Source: Candidatus Poseidoniales archaeon (GTDB lineage: Archaea; Thermoplasmatota; Poseidoniia; Poseidoniales; Poseidoniaceae). Taken from it: DNA of 64,000 bases. Below, one piece after another: positions 23 to 55,086 of this stretch (the first letter of the stretch is position 1; each line of letters opens with the position of its first letter). The stretch spans positions 7,583 to 71,582 of the forward strand of contig JAYQSB010000007.1 in NCBI GenBank assembly GCA_038146705.1, given 5' to 3'. Position numbers and translations under genes: made by a program. The notes beneath the pieces are model-generated. The model did not search any database, had not been told where the DNA came from, and saw nothing but the letters and a program-made list of their open reading frames with translations.

Positions 23-1408
23 TCAATCCTTCTTCTCTTTTCGAGGTCGATGTCTTTTTTTGGATGAATCTTGTTCTTCTTCACGCATTGCTCGTAATTC
101 TCTCGATGATTTCTTTGATTTCTTCCCGGATTGACCAGCGATATCGACACGAATCTTGCGGCCATCTATTTCAGTTCCATTTAATGCACCAACAACCTCT
201 TTTGCATTCGTTTTGGATGTTGTTGATACGAATGCGAATCCTTTTGGTTTACCATCCGGACTTGTGACGATATTGATGTGCGTGACTTCTGCATGTTCTT
301 TGAATGCTGCATCAATTTGTTCTTTTGTGATTGAGAAAGGAAGGTTGCCCACATAAAATTTGACTTCAGGGTCTCGTTTTGGCTTACTTTTCTTGCTCTT
401 GTCATCCGCTAAATTCACACCTAAGATGCGACCTTGAATTTTCTTTGTTTTCATGGCTTCGATAGCAGCCTGTGCCATTGCTTTATCTTCGTATGTGACA
501 AAGCCAAATCCTCGACTTGCTCCGCCTTCATCGGTCATCACAATACAATCTTCCATATCACCGAATTCGCCAAAGATTTCTCGTAGACCATTTGTATCAA
601 TATCTCGAGGAATCCCTCCTACGAAGAGACGACAGTCAGGGTCAGCCCGTGGCTTTGAGCCACCGCCGCCAGACCCGCCTTCGAATGAGAAATATTCTAC
701 TGCTCGACCATCGTTACGAACATCTGCAGCGATCATCGTTGAACGGGCTGCAGGGCCTTTTGCTCGGAACTTTTCAGTTGCTTCACTCCATCGCTTTCCT
801 TTTCTTGAAATTTCATCTATATCTTCCCGGCCACTTCCCCAACCGATTCCAAATTGGTCGGACACCGCACGATAATCCCTTGAGCCACAAGTTGAACATA
901 TGACATTCCAATCATCGCTTACATCTATTTCCATTTGTCCTCCGCACGAGCCACAGAGTGAACTCAAGACACCAAGGTGAGGGGCAGAGCGGAAGTCAAT
1001 TCGTAGAACTGGTTGTGTATCTGTTACAATTCCTCGACAAACATCTCGAACGTTGAGGGCATCTCTTGTTTGATGAAGATATCTGTCGGTGATGTTTGTG
1101 ACATGGAATTGTGCAATGCGGTTCTCAGCATCAATGGAGCCTGATTTCCCCTCGATGAGAAGAATCATCGCTTCACCATGTTTCTCATTGAGTCGAGTTA
1201 TTTCGCACAACACAGTATCGCCGACCTTCGGTGTGGGGAGTTCTTGTTGAGGTACGACGCTAATGATGCCATCTTCTTGATGAATTTCGCCGAGAACGAG
1301 TGCACGTAGTTCACCATGGTGGAGGTGGACGCCAGAGCCGACCTCGAATTCTCCTTCATTACCTAATTTCGTACCCGGGGTGACGATGCTCGCCGTCATG
1401 TTTCTCAT
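23..1408 (-). CDS. csl4: Exosome cap subunit Csl4 (N-domain + S1 + zinc ribbon) fused to two C-terminal RRM domains and a Lys-rich tail
   Basis: ORF 23..1612 trimmed to the ATG at 1408, because the upstream part overlaps the methyltransferase gene and AAGGA precedes this ATG. The N-half has Csl4 layout: IVTPGTKLG N-domain, S1-like FHVTNITDRY...VRDVCRGIV, and a CxxC-x15-CxxC zinc ribbon CGSCGG...CSTCGS (nt 887-955). After a GGSGGGGS linker come two RRMs with near-consensus RNP2/RNP1 motifs: LFVGGI/RGFGFVTY (nt 407-631) and FYVGNL/KGFAFVST (nt 137-361). A K/R/E-rich tail follows. Confidence 0.8.
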   Translation of the reverse strand: MRNMTASIVTPGTKLGNEGEFEVGSGVHLHHGELRALVLGEIHQEDGIISVVPQQELPTPKVGDTVLCEITRLNEKHGEAMILLIEGKSGSIDAENRIAQFHVTNITDRYLHQTRDALNVRDVCRGIVTDTQPVLRIDFRSAPHLGVLSSLCGSCGGQMEIDVSDDWNVICSTCGSRDYRAVSDQFGIGWGSGREDIDEISRKGKRWSEATEKFRAKGPAARSTMIAADVRNDGRAVEYFSFEGGSGGGGSKPRADPDCRLFVGGIPRDIDTNGLREIFGEFGDMEDCIVMTDEGGASRGFGFVTYEDKAMAQAAIEAMKTKKIQGRILGVNLADDKSKKSKPKRDPEVKFYVGNLPFSITKEQIDAAFKEHAEVTHINIVTSPDGKPKGFAFVSTTSKTNAKEVVGALNGTEIDGRKIRVDIAGQSGKKSKKSSRELRAMREEEQDSSKKRHRPRKEKKD

Positions 1409-2338: not shown

Positions 2339-3406
2339 TCAACCTATTGATGTCATTTCGACGAGAATGGACCAAGTATCAAGTTGAATGGCAATTGCAC
2401 GTTCATTCATTTCTTCCCATCGAGGGTCTTCCATGAATTCTGAAACTTCAATGCCAGAATCAATTTTCTCTTGGATAAAGGCACGAAATTCAATTTCAAT
2501 TTCAGACTGAGGTTCACTTTCTTCTTCCTGTGGCAATTCCACATCTGTTGAATCGTTTTCTTCGACCTCTAATGTAGGTTCGATTGGAACATCGACAACC
2601 ACCTCATCTGCACCTGCGATTTCTTCAGCCCCATCATTGCTCTTCTCATCACTTGCCGAAGGGGGAAGAGGAACCTGTTCAGTCTCTTCTGATGTCTCTT
2701 CAACATGTTGAGGTTCGACTACGGGCGTTTCAACCTCTTCGGTTTGGATCTCTTCAACAGGCTCATCTTTGGATTCTTCGTTGATATTTTCCTCAACGAC
2801 GGGTTCGGAAGCCTCTGAGATTTCCGGTTTAGGACGCTCAAGTCGGCCTACTCCTAGGACTTCAGCCTGTTGTCGAGCAAATTCTGCCGCTTGTCTTCTT
2901 GGAAGACTGACGAATGCTTTTCCAGGGAGTGAACTGGTTGGGAAAGGCAAGTAGTAAATATCAATTGGATTGATCTCTGGATGTGTAAAACACATGATTT
3001 GTTCGGCTTCAAATGCCCTTTGAGCAGGCGAATCAATAGAAAAGGGAAGGGGATGAACCTTGATGCTGCTTCTTTTCCAGCCTTCGCCTTTGATGAGGTG
3101 CTGAACCCACGGACCGAGGTCCGTTGTTGCGAGGTCAACGAATTGGAATGACGCATCACGAGGATTCAATCCTTGTTCCTCCAAGAGCTTGGCTTGTTCC
3201 CTTGGCCGATGAAACATCGACACAATCGGTTGCCCATGCTCGACAAGGTCGCCATGAAGTTCCATCATTTTGCGGTCTTTTCTTGGACAAAGCATGAGGA
3301 TTCGCATTCTGGTTGCGTTCACGTCCCAAATTTCGCCCCATCTTTGCTCTGCCTCATCAAACAACTGTCCCATGGTAGCGTCGGGAATCATTGCAGTTAT
3401 GCCCAT
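2339..3406 (-). CDS. Hypothetical protein: ~210-aa globular N-domain, ~110-aa highly acidic E/P/V-rich linker, short conserved-looking C-terminal segment
   Basis: Long ORF 2339..3457 begins with TTG. The ATG at 3406 is preceded by GGTGAG. I recognised no family motif. The acidic low-complexity region reads EPVVEENINEESKDEPVEEIQTEEVETPVVEPQHVEETSEETE... Confidence 0.55.
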   Translation of the reverse strand: MGITAMIPDATMGQLFDEAEQRWGEIWDVNATRMRILMLCPRKDRKMMELHGDLVEHGQPIVSMFHRPREQAKLLEEQGLNPRDASFQFVDLATTDLGPWVQHLIKGEGWKRSSIKVHPLPFSIDSPAQRAFEAEQIMCFTHPEINPIDIYYLPFPTSSLPGKAFVSLPRRQAAEFARQQAEVLGVGRLERPKPEISEASEPVVEENINEESKDEPVEEIQTEEVETPVVEPQHVEETSEETEQVPLPPSASDEKSNDGAEEIAGADEVVVDVPIEPTLEVEENDSTDVELPQEEESEPQSEIEIEFRAFIQEKIDSGIEVSEFMEDPRWEEMNERAIAIQLDTWSILVEMTSIG

Positions 3407-3460
3407 TGTCTCACCGGTGTGTATGAGACTGTTTTCCTCTTTAGCGATAGGGGTCAAAAT

Positions 3461-13620: not shown

Positions 13621-13679
13621 ACCAAAATAAAGATAGAATCAAAGAGGTAAACCGAGACATAGAGGCAGGAGGGGTGAGA

Positions 13680-16600
13680 ATGTATCGTCGAAATTCGCGA
13701 ATAATGCTTCTCATACTCATCTCTGGATTGATGGTATCTTCAACGACTATTGCTCCAATCTTAGCACAGCCAACACCGGCTGAAACAATGCAAAAAGACC
13801 GCACTGCTCCAATTCTCATCGAGGGATTGCCGCCGTTGATGTGTGGCCAAGATATATGCCCCTTTGAGTCTAGAATCATCGAACGACATGATTTGCCAGC
13901 ATCAGAAGACTACCTTTGGTGGTTGTCATATGGTCCTGACCTTGATTGGAATGGGATGGATGACCGTCTCCAACGCGTCATGGCAGGAGCCGACTCAATT
14001 TCTCCGACCGCTATCGTTGGCCCTGATGGAAGAAAAACGGTCGCTATCGTTGTTGATTTTGCATGGCACCCAACCCAAGATGACCACAATGCGTTGCGAG
14101 ATGTTTTGCAGCAACATGGGTGGGTAGGTGAAGAAGGTGGAGCTTGGTATCAAGCCCTTGATTCGTTGGATTCAATTGTCGTTGACAAGGTTCCTGTTTC
14201 GGCTCTTATGGACATTTATTTCCTCGATGGTGTTGTTGTTGTTGAAATGCAAAATGTCATGATACCATCCAATGATATCGCTACTCGTGCACTACGAATG
14301 CGGTCATCAGAAGTGTACACCGCAACAGCGTATGAGCGAGGATACAGTGGAGAGGGTGTCGTTATCGCAGTCCTCGACACAGGTGTGGATAACGAACATC
14401 GTTCACTCAACGACTTTGATGATAAAAATGACGCACCCGACGAAGACCCAACCTCTTACGATGACCAAAAATGGGTTGCGGGATACGATGCCACCTCAGC
14501 AGCATCGAATGCAGATGGAAGTCAAGATCCAGACGATGGACAAGGGCACGGAACGCATGTAGCAGGTAGTGCCCTTGGTACAGGTGGAAGCGATAGGGTC
14601 CACATGGGTACAGCTCCAGGAGCATATCTTGTTGACATCAAAGTACTCACAGATTCTGGCGGAACCAATTCTCAAGCATCCCTCAACGGTATTCAATGGA
14701 TGATCAACAACCGAAACACGGATTGGGGTAACAATGCTTCGAGTCGAGGAATCGATGTCGCCTCAATGTCGTTTGGTTCAGTATCCTCTCCACTCAACCC
14801 AGATGATGAAGGCGATAATGGTACAGGAGCAGAAGCGAGGCTTGTGAACAACGCAACATCGGCAGGTATTGTTTGTGTTGTAGCCATGGGGAATGATGGC
14901 TCTCAGCGTGTTCCTTCACCCGCAAGTGCGGACGGTGCAATATCTGTCGCAGCAGCGAACGATAGAAACAATGTCAACAGAACAAACGATGTCATCGCTT
15001 CATACTCAAACTCAGGGCCACGTCTCTCAGATAATGATGATGATGATTGGGATGAGCTCAAGCCCGATGTCACATCTTATGGTACAGCGATTATTTCGGC
15101 ATCTGCAGCCACCGGACCTTCTCTACCTGGTCAGTTTAAGACACTTGCAGAAAATGAGTATGAATCCCTTGATGGAACGAGCATGGCGACACCTCTTGTA
15201 TCAGGGGTTGTAGCCATTATGCTCCAAGCAGATGATTCTTTAACTCCTGAGCAGATTAAAGACATTCTACGGAATTCTTCAGAACAAAAGGGAAGTGCAA
15301 GCGAACCATCTGTTTCAAATCGATGGAATGCCAACTGGGGCTTTGGCCTCGTCGATGCGTCGTGTGCTCTCGATAAAGTGTTGAAGCGTGTTTGTACCTC
15401 TTTGGACGATTCAGGGGTTGTCATCGACCCGCCCCCCGGCGGCGGTGTTGGTGACCATGTTGATGTCGACGAGCCCGAAAATCAAAGTTATCACCTTGCT
15501 GGCCAATACCTAAGAGTTTCAGGGACGACAGACATTCCATCGGATGTTGATTATGTTCAGGTTCAAGTCTTGCTCGAACAAGTGAACCAAGATGGAGATA
15601 AAACCGAGTTATTACCATGGACTGCAGCGACCGGGTCTGTTGAAAATTGGTATCTCGATATTCTTGTTCAAGATGATTGGGCAGACCCAGATGCAGATTA
15701 CAATGTGGTCTATGCACGTGCGGTAACCGATGAGGGTGATGCCTCTTCAATCGCTTACAAGATTGTTCAATTTGGAAAAATGGACATCACCTTTTCATCA
15801 CCTGTAGCAGATTCAACGATTTCGGGTTCCATTGAAGTGTCTGGTACTGTTGAAGGTACAGACCATAACCGCATCGAATACAAAGTCGATGGTGGCGATT
15901 GGATTCTTGGTACCAACCTTGAGTCGATGGAAGAAGGCATTCAATCATGGTCATTTGTTTGGAATTCACAAGAGGTTGAGGACGGGATTCACAAATTGAG
16001 TGTTCGAATGGTCAATGATTCTGAAATCAAAACAGATGTCGAGCGTCGTTCTTTTACAGTGGATAATTTCCCAGCAACACCTGATTTTGAGATATTTGGC
16101 GTTCCTGAAATTCATGAACAAGGTCTGCCCGTCTACGATGCCATCGCAGGGACCCTCCTCGAGGTCAAAGTGGCCATTCGTAACATTGGCGATGATGATG
16201 GTGAAGATGTCTATATCGTGTTGAATGCACCTGGTACCAACTCCACCTCGTATCCCTCTGACAAGATCCTCGATTTGATTGAAGAAGGTGCTACGACCAC
16301 ATTCACACTTTATTGGTGGGCTACAGAACCTGGTGAGCACACAGTTGAGATCGAAATCGACCCAAACAATCGATTTAGTGAACCCAATGAGGAAAACAAT
16401 GTCTATTCGTTCACATTCGTTGTTAACGAACGACCAGTACAACCAGTTCTACGATTCCAGTCTGGAGCTGTGAGTACTTCTCCAGTCATTCCTACACCCA
16501 ACACTGAGTTTAAAATCAATATTCGAGTTGATAATTACGGTCAAAATGATGCAACGAATTTGCAATTAGCACTCGACAAAAAAGTCGAAGGCGTTGGATG

Positions 16601-18521
16601 GGATAGGGTCGCATCAAAAGAAATCATTGTCATACCAGGGTCGATTGTTTTCCCGGGCTTTGTTGAGGTCACATTCGATCAACTTACTCAAGAATCGGGT
16701 GTTGCAGAATACAGAGCGAAGTTAAGTGGAAATGGTGTAGAAGTTGACCATAGCCAATATAGATTCAACATCACTGTTACCGATTACGAGGTCAGTGCGC
16801 TCGTTCGGGCTGAACTTGACCCAAATGAAGTTCCTTTAGAACTCGTGAGTGTTCAAGACCGCTCACTTCTATTTACATTACAAAAAGAAGAATTACATGT
16901 CCGAGTGTATGATAAAACAAATCAACTCTTCACAGATATTCTCTTGGAAAGCAATTGGGATGGAGAACTTGCGACACTTGAACGTGAGGATGAGCTTGTA
17001 CATGTTGCTTGGACAAGAAAAACAGAAAGTATCGATGGGTACACACTTACGGATATTGGTATGACTTCAATATCGTACGAAGGAAAAATAACGCCGAAAC
17101 ATTATCATATGCAACCACTGAAACTCTCGGAAGGAACGTATTGGGGTCTCGCACTCGACGAACACGATAACCGAGTTGTCTTAGCAGGATACCATCGAGA
17201 TATTTCGACAGGTGGTTCATGGCAAGATGTTACATCGATCTTCGCCCTTGTGAGCGAAACACCTGACAGAGGAACATCTTGGGGTAACGAAGTTGTTGTC
17301 CTCGCTGATGTTGATATTCGTGAAAGTGATGCACAACCTCTTGCGATTGCCTTGGGCGAAGAGTATCTGCACATCATCTACCAACAAAGGAGAGATGATG
17401 TCACAGGTATTGAACGGGTTGGATTGATGTACACGCATGGAGACCCAACCCAATCATCTTGGTCGTTCAAATCTGCAGTTGACGATGAGAGTTACAATGC
17501 AGAACTTGATGTCATCGTTGATGACGATGAGGATATCCTCATTGCCGCTTGGATGAAACACACAGGGCGATTCACTCAGATAGCGACTGCGATAACTGAC
17601 TCGAGTTGGTCAATTGGTGAACCAAATTATATCCATTCACCAGGTTCAAAATATCTCAGCATTGGACAACACAAGGACGGTCACTATCTCGTGTATGATG
17701 AAATCAATGTCTTCGGACCAGTGACTCGATTTGGAAAAATATCTGACCAAGATGGAAATGCAGTGAATGGGCTTTCAAACATCATCTCATCAGGATATAT
17801 ACGTGGTTACGATGTGAATGAAGACAACGATGGCCTGATGTTTTTGATTTCAGAAACTGGTTCCTATGAATTCAAAGACATTCTATCGAAAAACAGTTTC
17901 AAGGAAGGTGAGCGATTGTCTGGACTTGAATTGCTCCTCGAACCTCTTCCAGGCTCCTACGAAACAAAACTCATTGTTGCATCATCCGCAACACTATTTC
18001 TTGGATTGTTTTTGATGTTCATCATCGTCACATTGCGAAGAAGTCGTAGAGAAGTTGAACTTGAAATTGCTAAGGTGGTCGAAGACCAAGACAATGTGGA
18101 ATTGATGATACAACCACAAGAAGATGTAGGTCCATTGCTTGCTATTGATGCCGAAGAAGAACTTGTTGTTTCTTCACCGACAATCATCGAGCAGCAAGAT
18201 GCCGAAGAGGAGCAAACATTAACAGAAGAGTTGGAGCAAAAAATCGAGCAAGGCGAAGGAAGTGCCAGACTTGAGCGCCGTATGAAGAGAAAGAAAGACC
18301 GTGAACATGCTGAGATGTTTGCGAATTTACCACCACCGATGTTGCCCCAGATAGCGGACATACCCCCACCCGACATCGCAGTTATTCCACAACCTGTAAT
18401 GCCGCTACCTGAATTATCCAAACAAATGGTTTGTCCAAAATGTTCGGCGACAATCAAAGTCAAAGACATCATGCGAACATCGATTATATGTCCGATATGC
18501 TCGGCAACGATTGAATCCTGA
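13680..18521 (+). CDS. Giant subtilisin-like (S8) serine protease, with CARDB-like and Asp-box/propeller-like regions, C-terminal TM anchor and cytoplasmic zinc-ribbon tail
   Basis: Signal peptide MYRRNSRIMLLILISGLMVSS. Catalytic triad contexts VIAVLDTGVD, GHGTHVAGSA and GTSMATPLVSG. CARDB-like VAIRNIGDDDGEDVYIVLNAPG and Asp-box-like TPDRGTSW. TM helix LIVASSATLFLGLFLMFIIVTL (17970-18035). The 161-aa tail ends in CPKC-x15-CPIC (18432-18503). GGAGGGG precedes the ATG at 13680. Confidence 0.9.
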   Translation: MYRRNSRIMLLILISGLMVSSTTIAPILAQPTPAETMQKDRTAPILIEGLPPLMCGQDICPFESRIIERHDLPASEDYLWWLSYGPDLDWNGMDDRLQRVMAGADSISPTAIVGPDGRKTVAIVVDFAWHPTQDDHNALRDVLQQHGWVGEEGGAWYQALDSLDSIVVDKVPVSALMDIYFLDGVVVVEMQNVMIPSNDIATRALRMRSSEVYTATAYERGYSGEGVVIAVLDTGVDNEHRSLNDFDDKNDAPDEDPTSYDDQKWVAGYDATSAASNADGSQDPDDGQGHGTHVAGSALGTGGSDRVHMGTAPGAYLVDIKVLTDSGGTNSQASLNGIQWMINNRNTDWGNNASSRGIDVASMSFGSVSSPLNPDDEGDNGTGAEARLVNNATSAGIVCVVAMGNDGSQRVPSPASADGAISVAAANDRNNVNRTNDVIASYSNSGPRLSDNDDDDWDELKPDVTSYGTAIISASAATGPSLPGQFKTLAENEYESLDGTSMATPLVSGVVAIMLQADDSLTPEQIKDILRNSSEQKGSASEPSVSNRWNANWGFGLVDASCALDKVLKRVCTSLDDSGVVIDPPPGGGVGDHVDVDEPENQSYHLAGQYLRVSGTTDIPSDVDYVQVQVLLEQVNQDGDKTELLPWTAATGSVENWYLDILVQDDWADPDADYNVVYARAVTDEGDASSIAYKIVQFGKMDITFSSPVADSTISGSIEVSGTVEGTDHNRIEYKVDGGDWILGTNLESMEEGIQSWSFVWNSQEVEDGIHKLSVRMVNDSEIKTDVERRSFTVDNFPATPDFEIFGVPEIHEQGLPVYDAIAGTLLEVKVAIRNIGDDDGEDVYIVLNAPGTNSTSYPSDKILDLIEEGATTTFTLYWWATEPGEHTVEIEIDPNNRFSEPNEENNVYSFTFVVNERPVQPVLRFQSGAVSTSPVIPTPNTEFKINIRVDNYGQNDATNLQLALDKKVEGVGWDRVASKEIIVIPGSIVFPGFVEVTFDQLTQESGVAEYRAKLSGNGVEVDHSQYRFNITVTDYEVSALVRAELDPNEVPLELVSVQDRSLLFTLQKEELHVRVYDKTNQLFTDILLESNWDGELATLEREDELVHVAWTRKTESIDGYTLTDIGMTSISYEGKITPKHYHMQPLKLSEGTYWGLALDEHDNRVVLAGYHRDISTGGSWQDVTSIFALVSETPDRGTSWGNEVVVLADVDIRESDAQPLAIALGEEYLHIIYQQRRDDVTGIERVGLMYTHGDPTQSSWSFKSAVDDESYNAELDVIVDDDEDILIAAWMKHTGRFTQIATAITDSSWSIGEPNYIHSPGSKYLSIGQHKDGHYLVYDEINVFGPVTRFGKISDQDGNAVNGLSNIISSGYIRGYDVNEDNDGLMFLISETGSYEFKDILSKNSFKEGERLSGLELLLEPLPGSYETKLIVASSATLFLGLFLMFIIVTLRRSRREVELEIAKVVEDQDNVELMIQPQEDVGPLLAIDAEEELVVSSPTIIEQQDAEEEQTLTEELEQKIEQGEGSARLERRMKRKKDREHAEMFANLPPPMLPQIADIPPPDIAVIPQPVMPLPELSKQMVCPKCSATIKVKDIMRTSIICPICSATIES

Positions 18522-22309: not shown

Positions 22310-25300
22310 TCAGAAATCTAGATCGTCCAATAAATCGTCAATCGATGGCTGGGCAGGTTGAGTTTGGGTATCAAAGACTTGTGGTTGAATAGGTGCTGGT
22401 GGTGCTGAATTTGCCTCCAACCATTGGTGGCCGTAGTAATTCCATTGTTCTAGCGTCCAACCTTGTGGTAGACCCGTTACAGGAATTGGCGGGGTAGGCG
22501 AGGTTTGTTGCGTCACAACAGGTTGTTGTGGAACTTGAGCGTTCAACGATGGTGCTGGTTCCAACTGTGTTTGTTGTTGAGGTAATGCAGGGAGTGCAGG
22601 CAATTCAGGCAGTTGGTTTTGCTGAGGTTGTTGAAATGCAGGAATATGACCAGTCCCGCCAATGCCAAAGACAGCATCGTCAAATTTCGTTTCATAGACT
22701 TGGTCCGAAGCCCTTGGCTTTGTGATCAACATAAATCCACCGAGGAGTGCTACGATGATGAGGATCGAAAAAATCGTGTACGTCATTGTTGTTCCTATTG
22801 CTGCTTCAATCGATTCAAAGACGCCGTCTGGAGGCAATTCTGCAACTTTGATGGTGATGGTCGTCGTTTGAAATTCCCCATCATCGTCAATGACAGTGAG
22901 AACGATGTCCCATGTTCCAGGAGGCAGGTTCATCAGTTCGATTGTCTCTGTGCTAAAATCGACATCACCAGTATTTTTCCCATCGAGGTTTCCATCCATG
23001 TAACCAACATCCCAAGTGTACAGCAGCGTGAGTTTGTCTGTCTCTGTTTCTCGTGTTCCCGATGCATCAAGGACGAGAGAGTCACCCTCTGTCAACTCTG
23101 TTAGAACAGCTTCAGTACCAATGACTGCAACAGGTGGAAGATTGAGTACACTCACATTCATGGATATTGACGCTGAAGCACCGTCATTGTCGATAACAGT
23201 TGCAGTAATTTTGCGAATCCCCATTGTGCCCCATGATGCATTCAAATTTTCACCGGTCACTTCACAGTCATCGTCCATGATTCCATTATTGTCCAAATCG
23301 ATGGTGGAATCAAGGTCCCAGCAAATGCGCAATGAATTCATGTCTGAGGGTGTATCATCAACATCGACAGTCAAATACAGGGGGTCATCTTCAAACAATG
23401 GTACATCGCCAAAGAATCCAGAAATTGTTGGTGCAAGATTGTTGACCATAACCGTTCCATACCGTGTTTCTGAGGTTACTCCATCATCATCAATAGCCCG
23501 GACACTGATGATGTGTTCACCTGAAATGTTCCACGAAATGAGTTGATTTGATTCGGCACCTGTGGTTGTCAACGTCCAATTTTCATCTTTATCGGATGGG
23601 TGCCATTCGATGAGCAAAGAGGGCTCATCGCCTGTAGAATCATCGGCCTGAACTGCTAGGAATCCAACTTGATCTTCGTTCACAACCCAAAGACCATCTT
23701 CATTTACATTTGCGGCTTCTCCAGCGAGAATAAGTTGTGGGTCAGAAATTGTTGGGGCAATGTTAAGAACTGTAACGCTGAAATTCACTTCTGTTGATGC
23801 ACCATCATCATCCACGCCAATTGCTGTGATTGTCATTTCTCCCTCTTCAACAGGTGTGAATGTACAGAGTCGTTGGGTGAGACCTTCATCACAGGATATG
23901 CCGGGCCAAGAAATTATGACATCTTGACCTTCGGGTGATATTGTGTCGTTATCAGCGACACCTGTCGCTTCAACAGTAATCTTTGATTCGACGTTGACAG
24001 TTTCAGGTCCAGTCAATTCGAAAACAGGTGCTCGATTTAATACGCTAACTGTGTGATTGAGTTCGGATGTATCCAGTTCATCATCGGTGACAATCAAATG
24101 TACATTCCATTCCCCATCATCTGACCAGTTGAATTCAGTAACACAAGTTTCTGAGTAAATTCTTGTGATAAGGCCAGGTTTGTTTTCGATTTCAAACATA
24201 CACTCAACTTCACCACCGTCGATGTCAAAGCTCGCCGTGGCATCGAGTGTGATGTTTTCCCACGTGTACATTCCTTCAGTCGAAGTCATATTGCTCGTAG
24301 GCAACCTTCCAAAGAAGAGATTCATTGTACCTTGGTTATTTGTTCTATCAGCATCTTCAGTTACACTCTCAGTTGGGTCGACGATGTATGTGAACACCGA
24401 TGTACCAATCGCTTGATCTTCTGCGACGGTGAGGTTAATTTCAACCCTGTAGGTCGAGTATGGACCGATAGCGGGAATGGTGACGCTTGACGTTGAAGAG
24501 AGTGGGCTGCCATCAAGCAAAAATTGAACATCGGTTGTGGGTGATGTTGCTATACCTCTATTTTGAATGGGTAATGAAAATGTAAGCAAATCACCGGGTA
24601 TTGAATTAAAACCAATGGCTGAATTCAGCGTTGTTGTTTCACCATTTCTGGTGCGCTCAACAATGCTTGCAGACGCTTGTGCAATGAGGTCCACGCCAAC
24701 GATTGAAAGGTCCATGACGACACTTGTGACACCAATGACTCGGGCCACAGGGTCCCACACAATGAGGCCATTGCTCGAATAATCATCGCTGCTCGGGGTG
24801 TCATCTGTAAATTCAGATGTGTCTAAATCAGAAATCGAAATATTACCAACACCATCAGTTGTTGGATTTCTAATGGTTTTGTCAATTTCATATCGTACCT
24901 GCAAGTTTGTGTTTGCCACACCATTTCCATTGTTGAGGTATTGTGCTGTAAAACTTGTATCGATTTCGGGAAGAACTCGGGGGTATGCCATTTGGACATC
25001 GATGACCTTGTTTCTCGTACCTGGGTTCGAGGTTGCAGATACGCCAGTAGAGTCAACTGGGCTGTAACTTTTCAAAAACCAGTCAATAGTGAATCCTGCA
25101 GTATTCGATACCCTATTCCATGCAGGGCCTCGAACTTCTGGACAATACCAATTGAATCCAGTGTTCACTCCTGTTCCATTCCATTCCATGATCTTGAAGG
25201 AATTTTGACAGCCTTGATATGAAGGAGCGTTACCGTTTTCTGAAGGAGCCTGATTCTTGGTGATTTGCCACGAGTAATTTTCTGTTACTGTATTATCAAA

Positions 25301-25966
25301 TCCGGATGGGTCGAAATAATCAGATGAGCCCGATACAGTTGTTTCTGCTTCAAGATTTGAATACCACTGGTTTCCATTTTGTAAGGGGAAATCATGTGAT
25401 TCCTTTGGAGGCGTGTATGTGGTGTTGAATTCAAGGGTCGCAATGTCCTGCTTCAGCCAATTCGCAGGAAATCCAAAAATGGATGGGATGAAATCGACAT
25501 CGATTTCAAAGACAGTAACGACGGTGGCAAGGTCTCGTACTCGAACATAATCCGCTCCATCGTAAGCGATGTTGAGCGTGCCTTGATTCCCGTCGAGCGT
25601 CGCTCCATTCGTTCCCGAAGTGAAATCTCCACTGATGAGAATTTCGTAAATGAGCGTTTGCGTGCCATCAATATCAACGAAGCCTATGTTGTTCACTTCT
25701 CGTGTGGTATCTCCGTCGAGTGTGTTGATTGATGCGGAGACACCAGACTGTTGCACGAGACTTGACACGTCGAAATCAGTGTCATACACCCAAGTATCCC
25801 CAATCCTGTAATTCGGAATATCAACAACGGATGTTGAACTTCTTCCTGATTCGCTGGGAGACACATCGGTTAGAAGTCTATGTTCTTGTTCTAGAATATT
25901 GAGTGCAATTGGTTGCAAGAGTACGAACAAAAGGAAGAGCGAAACAAGCCTTCGGTTCATATCCAT
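22310..25966 (-). CDS. Giant PKD-repeat surface protein with C-terminal TM anchor and P/Q-rich cytoplasmic tail
   Basis: Signal peptide MDMNRRLVSLFLLFVLL. Multiple PKD-like repeats (VLNRAPVFELTG..., VDDDGASTEVNFSVTVLNIAPT, IDDDGVTSE, IDNDGASAS, IDDDGEFQ). CARDB-like segment. TM helix at 22724-22789 and a 137-aa tail. Confidence 0.8.
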   Translation of the reverse strand: MDMNRRLVSLFLLFVLLQPIALNILEQEHRLLTDVSPSESGRSSTSVVDIPNYRIGDTWVYDTDFDVSSLVQQSGVSASINTLDGDTTREVNNIGFVDIDGTQTLIYEILISGDFTSGTNGATLDGNQGTLNIAYDGADYVRVRDLATVVTVFEIDVDFIPSIFGFPANWLKQDIATLEFNTTYTPPKESHDFPLQNGNQWYSNLEAETTVSGSSDYFDPSGFDNTVTENYSWQITKNQAPSENGNAPSYQGCQNSFKIMEWNGTGVNTGFNWYCPEVRGPAWNRVSNTAGFTIDWFLKSYSPVDSTGVSATSNPGTRNKVIDVQMAYPRVLPEIDTSFTAQYLNNGNGVANTNLQVRYEIDKTIRNPTTDGVGNISISDLDTSEFTDDTPSSDDYSSNGLIVWDPVARVIGVTSVVMDLSIVGVDLIAQASASIVERTRNGETTTLNSAIGFNSIPGDLLTFSLPIQNRGIATSPTTDVQFLLDGSPLSSTSSVTIPAIGPYSTYRVEINLTVAEDQAIGTSVFTYIVDPTESVTEDADRTNNQGTMNLFFGRLPTSNMTSTEGMYTWENITLDATASFDIDGGEVECMFEIENKPGLITRIYSETCVTEFNWSDDGEWNVHLIVTDDELDTSELNHTVSVLNRAPVFELTGPETVNVESKITVEATGVADNDTISPEGQDVIISWPGISCDEGLTQRLCTFTPVEEGEMTITAIGVDDDGASTEVNFSVTVLNIAPTISDPQLILAGEAANVNEDGLWVVNEDQVGFLAVQADDSTGDEPSLLIEWHPSDKDENWTLTTTGAESNQLISWNISGEHIISVRAIDDDGVTSETRYGTVMVNNLAPTISGFFGDVPLFEDDPLYLTVDVDDTPSDMNSLRICWDLDSTIDLDNNGIMDDDCEVTGENLNASWGTMGIRKITATVIDNDGASASISMNVSVLNLPPVAVIGTEAVLTELTEGDSLVLDASGTRETETDKLTLLYTWDVGYMDGNLDGKNTGDVDFSTETIELMNLPPGTWDIVLTVIDDDGEFQTTTITIKVAELPPDGVFESIEAAIGTTMTYTIFSILIIVALLGGFMLITKPRASDQVYETKFDDAVFGIGGTGHIPAFQQPQQNQLPELPALPALPQQQTQLEPAPSLNAQVPQQPVVTQQTSPTPPIPVTGLPQGWTLEQWNYYGHQWLEANSAPPAPIQPQVFDTQTQPAQPSIDDLLDDLDF

Positions 25967-49998: not shown

Positions 49999-52900
49999 AT
50001 GGCGGATGGTTCTCGTGCAAGGAACGCACTTTTCATCACATTTGTGTTCCTCTTCTCGTCGCAAGCAATCATGCTCACCGGCACCGATATGTCCTACCTC
50101 AAGAATGAACCAAAACCACGGTTATCTGCAGCCGATCAATTGGCTAATCTCACCCTCAATCCAACGACACCAAATTCAAATTTCAAACTCAGCCTTCCAG
50201 AAGGACAACCACTCACCTCTGCGTCCATAGAAATCGAACCCTATGCAACAGCAATGCACTCAGGGTTCGTATGGGATGATAATAGCATTTGGTCTCACAG
50301 CGATGCCACAAACGGTGGCGTAAGCATACAAGGAAATTCAATGACGGGCACTTCTGCTGGCAACCTTTGGGATTTCAACAATGGCAATCAAGGATGGACA
50401 TTTTCAGGCTACGGTGCCCGAGTAACTTCCCCTTCTTGTGGTATGAATGGAAGTTCTGGTGGCTCAATTCGGACCTATGCGGGTTCGTCGTACGCTACTT
50501 CGCCGGTCCTCAATCTCGCCGGAGGAAGCAATATACCATTCCATGCATGGGTGCGACAGGGTTCGAGTGGTTGCGGTGAAGAGCCAGATAGCAACGAAAA
50601 CCTCTACCTTCAATACAAAACGAGTTCAAATTCATGGACCACGTTCCGAACCTTCCAAGGTTCAACATCCGGTGGCTCTGTCACCAATGTGGTCTACAAC
50701 CTGCCTGCTGCAGCACTTCATTCAACATCGCAATTCCGCATCTATCAGAACTCTGGAAGTGGAACGTGTTGCGATTACTGGTTTGTCGATGACGTCCATA
50801 TTGTCTCGCCGCCTCAATCAAATTGGACAAGTCCTTCGTTAGGTTGGCAATCTGGATCGACACAGATGCTTTCCCGCAATTCGTATGCCCCAATTTTCCT
50901 TGAGGCTGACATTCCTCAAAATGCGTATTTGAACTGGACCGTTCTCGATGCGAGTGGATTACCGATTCCAGGTCTCCGTGGTTCGAATACACTCGTCATT
51001 CCTATGGAAGGCATCGACCATGATGTGTATCCAACATTCCGAATCCATCTCGAATTGACTGGTTCATCCAACGGCATGCCTACGCTTTACACAATTTCAG
51101 GTGATGGCAGTTTGGAAGAACATTTCTACACCGACCCTGCCGCACGGCACTGGGAACTGAATGGCAGTTCCTACAATGCCGTGACAAATGTTGTCACCGG
51201 TGGAACTTCAGATGAACTCATATCCCCATGGTTCCTTTCGCATATGCCGCTTTATGGAGCCCAAGTAACAGGTATTTCCTCCAATGCCTTGATTCAATAC
51301 CGAACAGGTCCAAATGATGTTTGGCACAACATCACATTCCCTCACAGTTTCAACATTTCAGGCCAAATGAGTGGCGTTCAATATCGCATTTCATCTCTGG
51401 TCCCAGCAAACGGAAACTGGCAGATGAACGAACTCTCTCACACGTTTTACGGCGGTCTTCAACCTGCTCTGCCCGCTCTCGATCTCGCCTTAGACGGTCG
51501 ATATGAATGGGGTGGAGGAGACGAGCGTGTTGGAATGTGGGGTTGGCAGAACACCTTCGTCAACAAAAACACAGCATACACAGTGTCCGTTTCAAACGGC
51601 AATCCAAGCAATCTTGCATTCTGGGTCCCAAGAGATTCAATGAAGTCACTCTCCCTGTCTTTCGTTGCATCGACAGGACATGTTGAGGCCGTCATCTTTT
51701 CTGTGCAAGGTCAAACCCTCGTGACCAAATCCTTCGGAAGTGGTGTGGAGAACGGTCTCATCCAATTGAACGGTTCAGAGTTCCAATCAATCTCTGATGC
51801 TCTCTATGGCCTCGCATCTTCGGTAGAAGTGCTTGGAACCATGTATGCAGAAGTTCAAGTTGAGGTCGTTGGTAACGGAATCGTCACCTTTTCAGGATTG
51901 AGTGCACCTCACCATGCTCAAACAGTTGTAAGTGCTGGACCAACCTCTTCATTTGTCATGGGCATCAATGAAGCAAGATACGGTGTCGTCCCAACTGGCG
52001 GTACCGACGAGGTCGTTTTACCCTTCGTAGCACAATCCCGTGGCGGTCTAAGAGTGAGCATTGCCGATATCGTGACCTCCAGTTCAGTTGAATTAGTCAG
52101 TGGTCAAATGCAAGACCAAGTCGCCGTACTTACCCCGAGTGAACGATGGCATACCATCGAAACTGAATACACTGTCCTCGGTGGCAACATCCAATATGTC
52201 CGTCTCGATGTATACGGAACTCTTCATCATGCTACCGTTCTCTATCAACTCGATGGCAATCCTATCATCGAAACAGGGGACAGTGATGCAATCATACTTC
52301 CAGAATTAGATTTGTTTACCCACGACGTAAACGGCACCAAAGTTGTGAGTTCTGCAACATTCCGAATAGCACCTGTATGGGACGATGAGATGATGTTGAG
52401 TGCAAGTCTTCGGCTTGTGATGGCCAATGGAGTGGCTTCGATTCCGTTTGTTCAAACTTGGGGGTCAACACTCTCACAAGGATATGAAAATGACCTCATC
52501 ATTCGCTCAGTTTCGTTCACGACAACCGATGGGCCAGCCCTACCGTCACAACAATATCTCAAGGGTGGAGAGCCTCTTCACCTCAGTATGCAAATCGGAT
52601 TTGAAGGTGTTCAAACCGAAGATGCCTTCCCCAGTGGCTTTGGTGAAGTTCAACTTTGGCGAGGTGAAACCCTTGTTGCCAACACGACTTCACTCGATGG
52701 AACATATTGGAACTATACCGATACTATTCCATTCACATATGCAGACGTCGTATGGACTGTCAAGCTCGTTTCCATGAATGGTTCTCACATTGGCCAACCA
52801 GCAGAGCTTACTCGAACATTCACCGTTGATTCAGTACGGCCAAAAGTGATGGAAACCAACCTTCCTCACTACGGGTATCGCTCGCCCAGCCCGACTCAAA

Positions 52901-55086
52901 CCCTCCAAGTCACCATTCGTGACCAGCCTGTTTTGCCCACCAATGTTACCCCTATGGTGTGGAGAGAATGGCTCAATGATTACAACATGAATGGTTGGCC
53001 AGATGAAGACGAGTATGTGCCAATGACATTCAACTTGCCATACAATCTTTCAACCCTGACAGGATTGTACACATTGCAACTTGACGATACCGCCGGTCAA
53101 CTTGGGCATAAAATTGCGATGTATATCGTCGGAACAGACCCTTCAGGCTACAACATACAAGACGGTGGTGGCCCAGAATATGACCAGCATCTTGTCATGT
53201 ACCAACTCGGTGTTTCAGCCACACCTAAAGTGGAACCAGCCGCATTCAATTGGGAAGGCGGACGAAAAGCATGGCTGCATCCTCAGGAAAAATACACACT
53301 CAATGTGGATGTCAATGAACCAAATGGTGCATCAGACCTTGCAGTTGTTGAGGTTGCCCTTGCCTCAAATCAAGGCAGCGATTCAATGACTGTTTCGTGG
53401 AGTTTTGAGACTGGCAACTGTACGACCACCTCGACACATTTGATCATTGAAGATTGTGAGATGATGAGCAAAGATGGTGGAACTGCAGGACCTTATGAAA
53501 CCGATATGGTGCTCAGTATTGAGTTCCATCTCAGTTGGAATACGCCTGACCTCGGTGAGACAAGGCGAGAACCTTCGATTCGAATTGAAGACAGAAGCGG
53601 GCTTGATGTTCTTCGCACCTTCCCCGAAAAACGATGGCGCTTTTCGTCAAATATGATGATTCCAGAAGAATCTGTTCAATTGTACCTCTCTGCAGGTTCA
53701 TTCCTTGGTGACGGGGCACGAGTTGTTCCAAATACGCCAATGGAAATTTCAGGCGGTTTGGTGTTCTCAGAAACAAATTCAGTTCCAGAATTTGATTGCG
53801 ATGTCAACATTCTTTTCGCAGGCAGGACCATTATTGCAACGGCTAAAGATGGCATATGGTCTTCCGAATTGACAGCACCTCCTACATCAGGCGAAGTCCC
53901 ACTTACGTGGGCGGTTGACTGTATCGAAGGTCAAGGGCAAGATGTGACTGAGAAAGAATCGTCTGTGAAATGGATTCTCGTCGACGGTATTGGACCGGAG
54001 CCCGTCGAAGTACTCTCTCCAAGACCAAAAGCAATACTCACAGCCGGAGGACATGATGTTCTCATCACAGTGAATGAAATTGGTGGACTTGATGTCCAAT
54101 CACTCCAAATTCGATGGGAGGTTGCAGATTACGAATCTGGAGAAGTGTTGAGAGAGGGCGTCGAACCAGTTCTTCTCGAAAGCGAGCAGCCAGATGGACT
54201 CATGCTCGAATTATCATCAAATTTCAATTTGTCAGAAATTAGTCGTGAGATGCTCATTGACCGTTTGGTTGTTCATCTGTATCTTGAGGGCCGAGACCTT
54301 GCAGGAAACAATGTCATCGGTATCGCAGGACAGGCTCCAAATCAACCGATTCAAACCTGGAATATGGAGTGGTTGCAACCTGAATTTGAAATCAACTCTG
54401 CAGGTATTGCATACTCACGACTGCTTGTTGATGTTGGGCAAACCACAGCAGTCACTGTCGAAGTTTCAAATTCTGGAACGCTTGACGGTGAGGTTGAATT
54501 AAACATCTACTGGGTTGAACTTACTGAAGAATCGGGCTTGCTTCAGCGAGTGACCGTCTTTGTTCCTGAGGGCGGTGTTGGTTCTGCAACGCTCGATTGG
54601 GGGCCAGAGCGTCCAGGCGTTCAATGGATAGAGGTCGAACTTGCGAATGGTGCAACGGCGAGTGGGCCTACAATCGATGTTCGTGTGCCAGAGGAGTTAA
54701 CCCTCTCAGAGAAGGTCTTTGGCGATGCGAATCCAATTCTTGGCTCCATTGCTGGTCTCCTCTTCATTGGTGTTTTGCTGACCTCACTGGTTTGGTTGAT
54801 CCGCTTAACGGGTAATCGAGGCTCAAAGGAAGCATATGACTGGGATGAATATTCCTCAGAATACGAGGAAGAAGAAGAGATTGACGATGAACGATTTGAA
54901 GAAATGAGCAATCGCAAAGATGTCCCTGAAATAGCCACGGCTGCCTCGACTGCAGCAGCAGTTTCCGATAGTACCGAGGAGACTGATTGGGTGATGGGGG
55001 CTGATGGATACTGGTGGTATCATGACAAAGAATCGAACGAGTGGTGGTACAAAGACGCAGATGGTAACATTGTAAAACATCCTTGA
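49999..55086 (+). CDS. Giant (1695 aa) exported protein with jelly-roll/MAM-like module and CARDB-like module, C-terminal TM anchor and acidic, Trp-rich cytoplasmic tail
   Basis: Signal MADGSRARNALFITFVFLFSSQA. MAM-like segment at 50362-50802. CARDB-like VEVSNSGTLDGEVELNIYW. TM helix at 54736-54801 and a 94-aa tail. Confidence 0.7.
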   Translation: MADGSRARNALFITFVFLFSSQAIMLTGTDMSYLKNEPKPRLSAADQLANLTLNPTTPNSNFKLSLPEGQPLTSASIEIEPYATAMHSGFVWDDNSIWSHSDATNGGVSIQGNSMTGTSAGNLWDFNNGNQGWTFSGYGARVTSPSCGMNGSSGGSIRTYAGSSYATSPVLNLAGGSNIPFHAWVRQGSSGCGEEPDSNENLYLQYKTSSNSWTTFRTFQGSTSGGSVTNVVYNLPAAALHSTSQFRIYQNSGSGTCCDYWFVDDVHIVSPPQSNWTSPSLGWQSGSTQMLSRNSYAPIFLEADIPQNAYLNWTVLDASGLPIPGLRGSNTLVIPMEGIDHDVYPTFRIHLELTGSSNGMPTLYTISGDGSLEEHFYTDPAARHWELNGSSYNAVTNVVTGGTSDELISPWFLSHMPLYGAQVTGISSNALIQYRTGPNDVWHNITFPHSFNISGQMSGVQYRISSLVPANGNWQMNELSHTFYGGLQPALPALDLALDGRYEWGGGDERVGMWGWQNTFVNKNTAYTVSVSNGNPSNLAFWVPRDSMKSLSLSFVASTGHVEAVIFSVQGQTLVTKSFGSGVENGLIQLNGSEFQSISDALYGLASSVEVLGTMYAEVQVEVVGNGIVTFSGLSAPHHAQTVVSAGPTSSFVMGINEARYGVVPTGGTDEVVLPFVAQSRGGLRVSIADIVTSSSVELVSGQMQDQVAVLTPSERWHTIETEYTVLGGNIQYVRLDVYGTLHHATVLYQLDGNPIIETGDSDAIILPELDLFTHDVNGTKVVSSATFRIAPVWDDEMMLSASLRLVMANGVASIPFVQTWGSTLSQGYENDLIIRSVSFTTTDGPALPSQQYLKGGEPLHLSMQIGFEGVQTEDAFPSGFGEVQLWRGETLVANTTSLDGTYWNYTDTIPFTYADVVWTVKLVSMNGSHIGQPAELTRTFTVDSVRPKVMETNLPHYGYRSPSPTQTLQVTIRDQPVLPTNVTPMVWREWLNDYNMNGWPDEDEYVPMTFNLPYNLSTLTGLYTLQLDDTAGQLGHKIAMYIVGTDPSGYNIQDGGGPEYDQHLVMYQLGVSATPKVEPAAFNWEGGRKAWLHPQEKYTLNVDVNEPNGASDLAVVEVALASNQGSDSMTVSWSFETGNCTTTSTHLIIEDCEMMSKDGGTAGPYETDMVLSIEFHLSWNTPDLGETRREPSIRIEDRSGLDVLRTFPEKRWRFSSNMMIPEESVQLYLSAGSFLGDGARVVPNTPMEISGGLVFSETNSVPEFDCDVNILFAGRTIIATAKDGIWSSELTAPPTSGEVPLTWAVDCIEGQGQDVTEKESSVKWILVDGIGPEPVEVLSPRPKAILTAGGHDVLITVNEIGGLDVQSLQIRWEVADYESGEVLREGVEPVLLESEQPDGLMLELSSNFNLSEISREMLIDRLVVHLYLEGRDLAGNNVIGIAGQAPNQPIQTWNMEWLQPEFEINSAGIAYSRLLVDVGQTTAVTVEVSNSGTLDGEVELNIYWVELTEESGLLQRVTVFVPEGGVGSATLDWGPERPGVQWIEVELANGATASGPTIDVRVPEELTLSEKVFGDANPILGSIAGLLFIGVLLTSLVWLIRLTGNRGSKEAYDWDEYSSEYEEEEEIDDERFEEMSNRKDVPEIATAASTAAAVSDSTEETDWVMGADGYWWYHDKESNEWWYKDADGNIVKHP

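Follow-up and report, generated by a model that had tools for sequence, protein, structure and literature searches.

In the present study we analysed a 64,000-nucleotide stretch of the genome of a Candidatus Poseidoniales archaeon (assembly GCA_038146705.1, contig JAYQSB010000007.1, positions 7,583 to 71,582), hereafter called the window (64 kb), which carries a gene for the exosome subunit Csl4 extended by two RNA recognition motif (RRM) domains. This gene, here named Csl4-RRM, occupies window positions 23 to 1,408 on the minus strand, as do all the features of the gene and of its immediate neighbours that are described below, and forms one uninterrupted open reading frame (ORF) of 461 residues counted from M1, with its stop codon at 23-25. 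A first-pass annotation of the window had described it as a single ORF that fuses a complete Csl4 with two RRMs, and the translation, the NCBIfam model PRK09521 and the Pfam models ECR1_N and RRM_1 all agree with that description. Our alignments comprise 64 homologues, and our comparison of loci about 80 (79 to 83, depending on the feature). The true translation start is probably M4 (window position 1,399), which would give a protein of 458 residues, since the sequence ATGACG is invariant across 79 loci, some of which have AAGT or AAGG in place of the first ATG.

The window protein contains a complete Csl4, whose three domains and their order are those of archaeal Csl4 in general (AF0206, PDB 2BA1/3M7N, PRK09521, arCOG00676), namely an N-terminal domain, an S1 barrel and a four-cysteine zinc ribbon. 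With a score of 102.5 bits (curated cutoff 90, E 2.3e-29), residues 8-186 fit positions 2-178 of the 180 in the NCBIfam profile PRK09521/NF034126, 'exosome complex RNA-binding protein Csl4', and the Csl4 of A. fulgidus (2ba1_A, 179 residues) aligns end to end, its chain positions 3-177 pairing with residues 8-189. The same chain is the top Foldseek match of the AlphaFold model of Csl4-RRM. The N-terminal domain (residues 8-55, positions 1,244 to 1,387) is recognised by Pfam ECR1_N over residues 8-43 (32.6 bits, cutoff 27) and is modelled at a pLDDT of about 80. The S1 barrel (residues 60-145, positions 974 to 1,231) lies inside the NCBIfam match, aligns with 2ba1_A both by sequence and by fold, and is conserved to at least 90% in 57 of its 86 alignment columns. 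In the zinc ribbon (residues 146-189, positions 842 to 973), the cysteines C152, C155, C171 and C174 are invariant in the 64 homologues and in register with those of AF0206. Pfam EXOSC1 alone stays below threshold on Csl4-RRM (16.8 bits vs 21.2). We also came across a related lineage with two RRMs, represented by a 469-residue protein assigned to a 'Ca. Thermoplasmatota archaeon' (P0123, contigs up to 2 Mb), in which two of the four cysteines of the zinc ribbon have been lost; its ribbon reads CSNSG...CHTSG, while the remainder of the protein is kept.

The statement that archaeal Csl4 normally ends after the zinc ribbon holds, as AF0206 has 179 residues and canonical relatives (n=68, including those of Archaeoglobus) mostly have 175-200; a Csl4 of Thermoplasmata ends after 189 residues with ...DYGKGHLNL. 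Unlike these canonical proteins, Csl4-RRM runs on for some 270 residues beyond the canonical end point at residue 189 (...FGIG), its extension beginning exactly where AF0206 ends and comprising a conserved middle module, the two RRMs and a C-terminal motif. Such length beyond the zinc ribbon is a variant architecture and does not exclude the window protein from the Csl4 family. Methanosarcinales have Csl4 proteins of 223-242 residues, and at least in that of Methanococcoides (P0408, L089 3501-4226) the extra length is an N-terminal low-complexity extension rich in Arg, Lys, Asp and Ser; therefore, lineage-specific basic additions to Csl4 also exist elsewhere, at the opposite end of the protein.

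The region between the zinc ribbon and the first RRM is not the simple Gly-rich join that had been proposed. About 56 conserved residues (190-245, positions 674 to 841), following the pattern LNxxGKRW...E...GPxxRxTxIAADxRxDGR...FxFEG, precede a short and variable Gly-rich spacer (residues 246-258, positions 635 to 673), in which 3 of 13 columns are conserved and of which GGSGGGGS makes up residues 246-253. This middle module is the most conserved segment of the protein, with a mean majority fraction of 0.91, compared with 0.88 for the S1 barrel and 0.87 for RRM1, and with at least 90% conservation in 40 of 56 columns. AlphaFold models it with a few short helices at a pLDDT of 31-40. Given that it is strongly conserved yet modelled with low confidence, a combination typical of segments that fold on a partner, the module would probably be a docking segment that is ordered only on its partner. 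Neither the module nor the tail has a Pfam match at E values up to 10, and the best match of the module profile in the PDB (E 0.11) is at chance level; against a set of 5.8 billion proteins the profile returned three short fragments only and missed the known fusions, so that this search is uninformative. At the other end of the protein the basic tail that had been noted is present (KKRxRRPRxKKD), but it does not stand alone, as it is preceded by a conserved motif, KSSRELxAxREE, with a predicted helix at residues 435-448. Motif and tail span positions 26 to 112, and K433, R436, E437, A440, E443 and E444 are invariant in the 64 homologues.

Profile searches bear out both RRM folds. RRM1 (residues 259-335, positions 404 to 634) and RRM2 (residues 350-425, positions 134 to 361) are separated by a Lys-rich spacer (residues 336-349, positions 362 to 403), apparent in the alignment and conservation profile, and they match Pfam RRM_1 (PF00076) in two copies, over residues 261-328 and about 351-421 (E 4e-39, 132.8 bits against a cutoff of 20.7), RRM2 being matched by RRM_occluded as well. 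The AlphaFold model has the beta-alpha-beta-beta-alpha-beta order of the RRM fold in both domains at a pLDDT of 80-86 (in RRM1, strands 260-264, 285-292, 298-306 and 330-333 with helices 272-282 and 309-319, and the equivalents in RRM2). The RNP motifs named in the first-pass annotation are there, RNP2 reading LFVGGI and RNP1 RGFGFVTY in RRM1, and FYVGNL and KGFAFVST in RRM2, and their aromatic residues F262, F301 and F303 (RRM1) and Y352, F391 and F393 (RRM2) are invariant in the 64 homologues. Such invariance of the RNP1 and RNP2 aromatics is the usual pattern in RRMs that bind RNA, not in UHM-type RRMs that bind protein. With RRM1 and RRM2 only 26% identical, the pair is old and not the product of a recent internal duplication.

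The RRM domain is scarce in archaea, and the two RRMs had at first been called eukaryote-like, which our comparisons do not show. The best matches in the PDB by sequence or fold are tandem-RRM proteins, namely PABP, nucleolin, hnRNP A1/A2B1, Sxl and HuR (Foldseek E about 1e-13 for Sxl, hnRNP A2B1 and HuR), and identity to eukaryotic tandem RRMs is 33-39%, but the prokaryotic RRM model NCBIfam NF058537 is exceeded too (102.4 bits vs 100). The closest non-fusion matches are multi-RRM proteins, whose total scores are inflated by the number of repeats; two of them that we inspected sit on eukaryotic contigs (WD40, Nup54, protein kinase, Rpb5). As such, the sequence evidence on the origin of the RRMs points both ways, to eukaryotic tandem RRMs and to the prokaryotic model. 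Membership in the eukaryotic PABP, SF-CC1 and ELAV families was rejected, with scores of 103.9 vs 497.1 for TIGR01628, 105.6 vs 231.65 for TIGR01622 and 59.3 vs 279.1 for TIGR01661.

The fusion is widespread. A search of 5.8 billion proteins gave over 120 clusters with 46-95% identity to Csl4-RRM across 92-100% of its length, the proteins being 453-528 residues long, and a scan with one genome per species of the Genome Taxonomy Database (GTDB) found relatives encoded in at least 125 genomes, including the Marine Group II (MG-II, MGII) chromosome CM001443.1, which we take to be the 2012 assembly of Iverson et al. The best 80 of these at least 125 are labelled Poseidoniales, Poseidoniaceae, Poseidonia or generic euryarchaeote metagenome-assembled genomes (MAGs), the closest being a Poseidoniales MAG at 95% identity, with one exception. 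This exception, L019 (NZEQ01000079.1), is filed as 'Verrucomicrobiales bacterium isolate ARS100' and carries the full Poseidoniales gene string including Csl4-RRM; owing to this gene order it is probably a mis-binned archaeal contig. Csl4-RRM is the normal Csl4 of Poseidoniales (Marine Group II), and its architecture is the norm across the order.

An assembly chimera or a frameshift that joined a Csl4 gene to a separate RRM gene might be suspected from some MAG annotations in which the gene is split, as in the NCBI MAG proteins P0284 and P0285, a Csl4 fragment of 193 residues and an 'RNA-binding protein' of 115 residues that corresponds to RRM2 plus the tail and was called from an internal Met. 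These split calls, however, are partial sequences located at contig ends or at Gly-rich repeats, and the continuous ORF recurs in all the clusters and species genomes just mentioned, which derive from independent samples and assemblers. In addition, the ORF is intact on polished contigs of 1.1-2.4 Mb from ERZ28548069, ERZ28548087 and ERZ28548088, tblastn matches run as a single segment from residue 1 to about 447-461, and the junction region is the best-conserved part of the protein, which together leave an artefact with next to no probability and in effect rule it out. Split annotation of this kind can mask the fusion in annotation-based surveys.

In public annotation the fusion is nonetheless visible, members being named 'exosome complex RNA-binding protein Csl4' by NCBI and 'RNA recognition motif-containing protein/exosome complex RNA-binding protein Csl4' or 'nucleolin' by IMG. 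Since the architecture is standard in a well-sampled order (at least 125 species genomes) and already named by IMG, the novelty of the fusion is reduced, in line with what the first-pass annotation had foreseen for an architecture that is already common and annotated: the gene is real and its components are known families, but it is not novel at the database level. Our literature search turned up no paper in which Csl4 or the exosome is connected with RRMs, be it in MGII or in other archaea, and a search on RRM domains in archaea generally returned nothing relevant. As far as we found, the middle module, the C-terminal motif, the leader hairpin and the cassette swapping, the latter two of which are described below, are undescribed.

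More distant orthologues from related marine lineages, drawn from a representative library at 50% identity, keep the Csl4 part, the first half of the middle module (LNxxGKRW...E, common to all variant orthologues) and an ending of the form (K/R)SxRExxAxxEEG, and between these constant flanks they carry other cassettes. There is one RRM in P0159, a treble-clef zinc finger (zf_Tbcl_2) followed by one RRM in P0156 (L085 8001-9314), and two zf_Tbcl_2 fingers with long RGG repeats in P0261 (L084 8001-9383); P0131 is a further Csl4 orthologue with a variant cassette, and P0125 and the two-RRM P0123 also count among the variant lineages. The variant genes at L084 and L085 directly follow the gene for a METTL5-like methyltransferase, the upstream neighbour of Csl4-RRM, and share the wider synteny. 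Thus, the variant-cassette genes are orthologues and not unrelated fusions. The swapping of cassettes between the same middle module and the same C-terminal motif argues that the trait under selection may be an RNA-binding arm on Csl4 as such.

The neighbours of Csl4-RRM had been identified correctly as a METTL5-like enzyme and a small zinc-ribbon protein. The former, a METTL5-family rRNA methyltransferase of 204 residues with a catalytic NPPW motif (positions 1,503 to 2,117), contains the sequence IIMNPPWG and matches PH1948 (E 2.6e-27), human METTL5 (E 2.4e-21, residues 4-200) and Ta1320 (E 1.6e-18) in the PDB; its gene adjoins Csl4-RRM in 82 of 83 loci. Immediately upstream of it lies the zinc-ribbon protein (59 residues, positions 2,122 to 2,301; Pfam Zn_Ribbon_1, with a Gln-rich tail), which is present in 79 of the 83 loci at 58-98% identity and is better conserved than its neighbours. 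We considered and rejected the idea that it is a Trm112-like partner of the methyltransferase, as it matches only generic zinc-ribbon Pfam families, and the best PDB matches are non-significant ones to the ribbons of eL40 and bL32. Next comes an acidic protein of 372 residues (positions 2,339 to 3,457) with a very acidic C-terminal half, which is syntenic throughout Poseidoniales at about 50% identity and matches no Pfam or NCBIfam family. The order GT2, aspartate-semialdehyde-dehydrogenase-like (ASD) gene, acidic protein, zinc-ribbon protein, METTL5-like gene and Csl4-RRM is fixed in essentially every locus with enough flank.

The co-directional string that had been noted is kept in about 80 loci, but the RNA-processing module that had been read into it is an old archaeal neighbourhood. 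Methanococcoides has a methyltransferase of 28% identity (E 1e-24) directly before a Csl4 with the canonical ending, followed by RpoL, and its Csl4 thus shares the METTL5-like upstream neighbour with Csl4-RRM. Because of this, the methyltransferase-Csl4 adjacency is an ancient archaeal arrangement and not a special module of Poseidoniales. In a Thermoplasmata MAG the order is Csl4, RpoL, TruD. RpoL, the usual downstream neighbour of Csl4, is replaced in Poseidoniales contigs by a radical-SAM gene; the window itself ends at the stop codon of Csl4-RRM.

Between the METTL5-like and Csl4-RRM genes lies a spacer of 94 nucleotides (positions 1,409 to 1,502) whose DNA sequence is conserved to a striking degree in about 79 Poseidoniales loci, though the flanking proteins are only about 50% identical. 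It contains a box, GGGTT(G/C)AAAAGG (the GGGTTGAAAAGG box, positions 1,465 to 1,478), that is nearly invariant in 79 loci, lies about 60-70 nucleotides upstream of the start codon and represents a candidate BRE/TATA promoter element. The spacer also holds an AAGCGAA block, absent from the clade of the window itself (the window and L004-L008), and a AGGAATGA element, as well as the ATGACG start, which is invariant. A hairpin of 27 nucleotides and 10 base pairs, GGCGTGCGACC-loop-GGCCATGTC (positions 1,415 to 1,441), lies in what is presumably the 5' leader of Csl4-RRM. RNAalifold on 80 loci gave 10 pairs, 5 of them with compensatory changes; paired cells amount to 98.2% vs 90.4% in shuffled alignments and the covariation score to 0.425 vs 0.25 (0/500 shuffles in either case), and in slid controls 28-48% were paired. 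Rfam has no match for the leader at the gathering threshold or at E values up to 1. Since the 5' blocks of the spacer form no consensus helix beyond the hairpin, we read them as putative promoter elements, and the spacer may combine a promoter of the Csl4-RRM gene's own with a structured, possibly regulatory leader. Scans for sigma-70 promoters and intrinsic terminators stayed at background level, with models that are not applicable to archaea. As the conserved promoter-like box and the leader separate the METTL5-like and Csl4-RRM genes, the kept gene order does not by itself imply co-transcription. In the variant locus L085 there is no such spacer, and the stop codon of the methyltransferase gene overlaps the Csl4 start codon by one base.

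The archaeal exosome is used to model the ancestral state of its eukaryotic counterpart, and how its cap selects substrates is poorly understood; in the systems examined to date, Rrp4 and separately bound DnaG provide substrate preference. In the A. fulgidus exosome the pore is lined by the S1 domains, and the zinc ribbon of Csl4 has a peripheral position in the cap. Building on the domain composition, the invariant RNP aromatics, the orthology, the fixed gene order and the cassette swap that we observed, we consider it reasonably likely that Csl4-RRM represents, by orthology, the Csl4 of the exosome cap in Poseidoniales, to which a lineage-specific C-terminal arm has been added. Its Csl4 part would then be seated on the Rrp41-Rrp42 ring in the way seen for A. 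fulgidus, and the middle module would emerge from the peripheral zinc ribbon and act as a docking segment, followed by the flexible Gly spacer, the two RRMs, a variable spacer, and the conserved helix with its basic tail. The Gly spacer might let the two RRMs sweep the space above the channel, and as a cap would hold at most three copies of Csl4, the S1 pore could be surrounded by as many as six tethered RRMs. There, the RRMs may capture single-stranded RNA by its 3' ends or tails, raise its local concentration at the channel entrance and feed it to phosphorolytic decay or to tailing, a role that would recall the one played in Sulfolobus by DnaG bound to Csl4, or in eukaryotes by exosome adaptors that bear RRMs. 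Since Csl4 is a known docking platform for DnaG, whose association with the exosome requires Csl4 (PMC3672285), and for aRNase J, which binds Csl4 via the Csl4 C-terminal domain and S1 (PMC7144898), fused RNA-capturing modules seem to be the most economical reading of the extension.

Several points weigh against this proposal. Assembly on the ring, RNA binding, recruitment and the parts played by the middle module and the C-terminal motif are our interpretation of sequences and structural models, and for the module and the C-terminal helix the suggested roles are guesses, because AlphaFold confidence is low in both. In addition, neither an RNase PH gene nor any of Rrp41, Rrp42 and Rrp4 is encoded within the 64-kb window, which is the genomic scope covered here, and the MGII genome and Undinarchaeota papers gave no clade-resolved answer as to the exosome core in Poseidoniales. 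We are more doubtful still about a wider proposal, advanced here tentatively, that in Poseidoniales and their marine relatives Csl4 has become a modular substrate-recruitment subunit, with a swappable cassette between constant elements, and that its gene is autoregulated by way of the structured leader, which its own RRMs would recognise. If true, this would make it an archaeal equivalent, built into the cap, of the eukaryotic exosome adaptors that contain RRMs and RGG repeats.

The protein might instead work mainly outside the exosome, as a free RNA-binding or chaperone protein or a ribosome-biogenesis factor that acts with the METTL5-like enzyme, for instance by keeping pre-rRNA in place for m6A modification or 3' trimming, with the Csl4 part being no more than a further OB/zinc-ribbon RNA binder. 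This would suit the methyltransferase-Csl4 adjacency, which is universal here and ancient, the one-base ORF overlap in one variant lineage, an exosome core that is presumed for Poseidoniales and was not seen within the window, and the automatic JGI name 'nucleolin', which mirrors the look of RRMs with a basic tail. However, the same methyltransferase-Csl4 neighbourhood occurs where Csl4 is canonical, so the adjacency implies no new function, and conservation is strong in each of the three Csl4 domains, among them the N-domain, which to our knowledge is known only as a ring-contact element. We therefore regard an exosome-independent role as unlikely. It also seems improbable that the RRMs are chiefly regulatory, binding the hairpin of their own 5' leader, or that they are protein-contact modules for partners such as DnaG or aRNase J. 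The covarying 10-bp hairpin and the nearly invariant blocks just upstream of the start in all Poseidoniales loci would fit the former, and the published role of the Csl4 C-terminal region as a protein-docking site (PMC7144898) the latter, but both have to be set against the invariance of the RNP1 and RNP2 aromatics in both RRMs. Furthermore, the variant lineage that lacks the spacer (L085) retains an RRM, and autoregulation would in any case be compatible with substrate recruitment.

If Csl4-RRM is a cap subunit with an RNA-binding arm, its closest functional analogy in archaea is the DnaG-exosome of Sulfolobus, in which DnaG bound to the Csl4-exosome changes RNA preference (Hou et al. 2013, 2014; PMC3672285, PMC4227792). 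In both cases an extra RNA-binding activity would be placed on the cap via Csl4. DnaG, however, is a separate polypeptide with a primase/TOPRIM core that is attached non-covalently and prefers poly(A), whereas the RRMs of Csl4-RRM are covalently fused. With PABP, hnRNP A1 and nucleolin, Csl4-RRM has in common canonical tandem RRMs with RNP1 and RNP2, and with RBM7 of the NEXT complex it would share the concept of RRM proteins that deliver RNA to the exosome, but the eukaryotic adaptors are separate proteins, and no Csl4/EXOSC1-RRM fusion is known to be involved. Bacterial PNPase, a phosphorolytic 3'-5' RNase PH ring with KH and S1 domains covalently tethered above its channel, resembles Csl4-RRM in the tethering of RNA-binding domains and differs in polypeptide organisation and domain types. 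PNPase is autoregulated through the pnp 5' leader. The structured 5' leader of Csl4-RRM offers a possible parallel, and here we speculate, by this analogy, that Csl4-RRM might be autoregulated via its leader.

As a system, Csl4-RRM is nothing new in kind. Poseidoniales and their marine relatives are the planktonic archaea of greatest abundance in the surface ocean, and the tandem RRMs present on Csl4 across the whole, globally abundant order, together with the swapped zinc fingers and RGG repeats of their relatives, may represent a natural experiment in cap-mediated RNA recruitment. In addition, our data add a lineage-wide instance of canonical RRMs in archaea and draw attention to the middle module and the leader hairpin as conserved, uncharacterised elements. 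The organisms are uncultured, yet their proteins are amenable to recombinant reconstitution.

The other genes of the window, which include those for TBP, NMD3, KaiC, CysRS and IleRS and for large CARDB/PKD/subtilase proteins, fit an archaeal chromosome. A protein-degrading lifestyle is attributed to MGII, and large surface or secreted proteins are to be expected in such organisms. Three very large ORFs in the window look, from their sequences, like proteins of this kind: one of 1615 residues with subtilase and CARDB domains (13,674 to 18,518, plus strand), one of 1218 residues with CARDB and PKD domains (22,313 to 25,966, minus strand), and one of 1695 residues whose only match is to a reelin subrepeat (49,999 to 55,083, plus strand).

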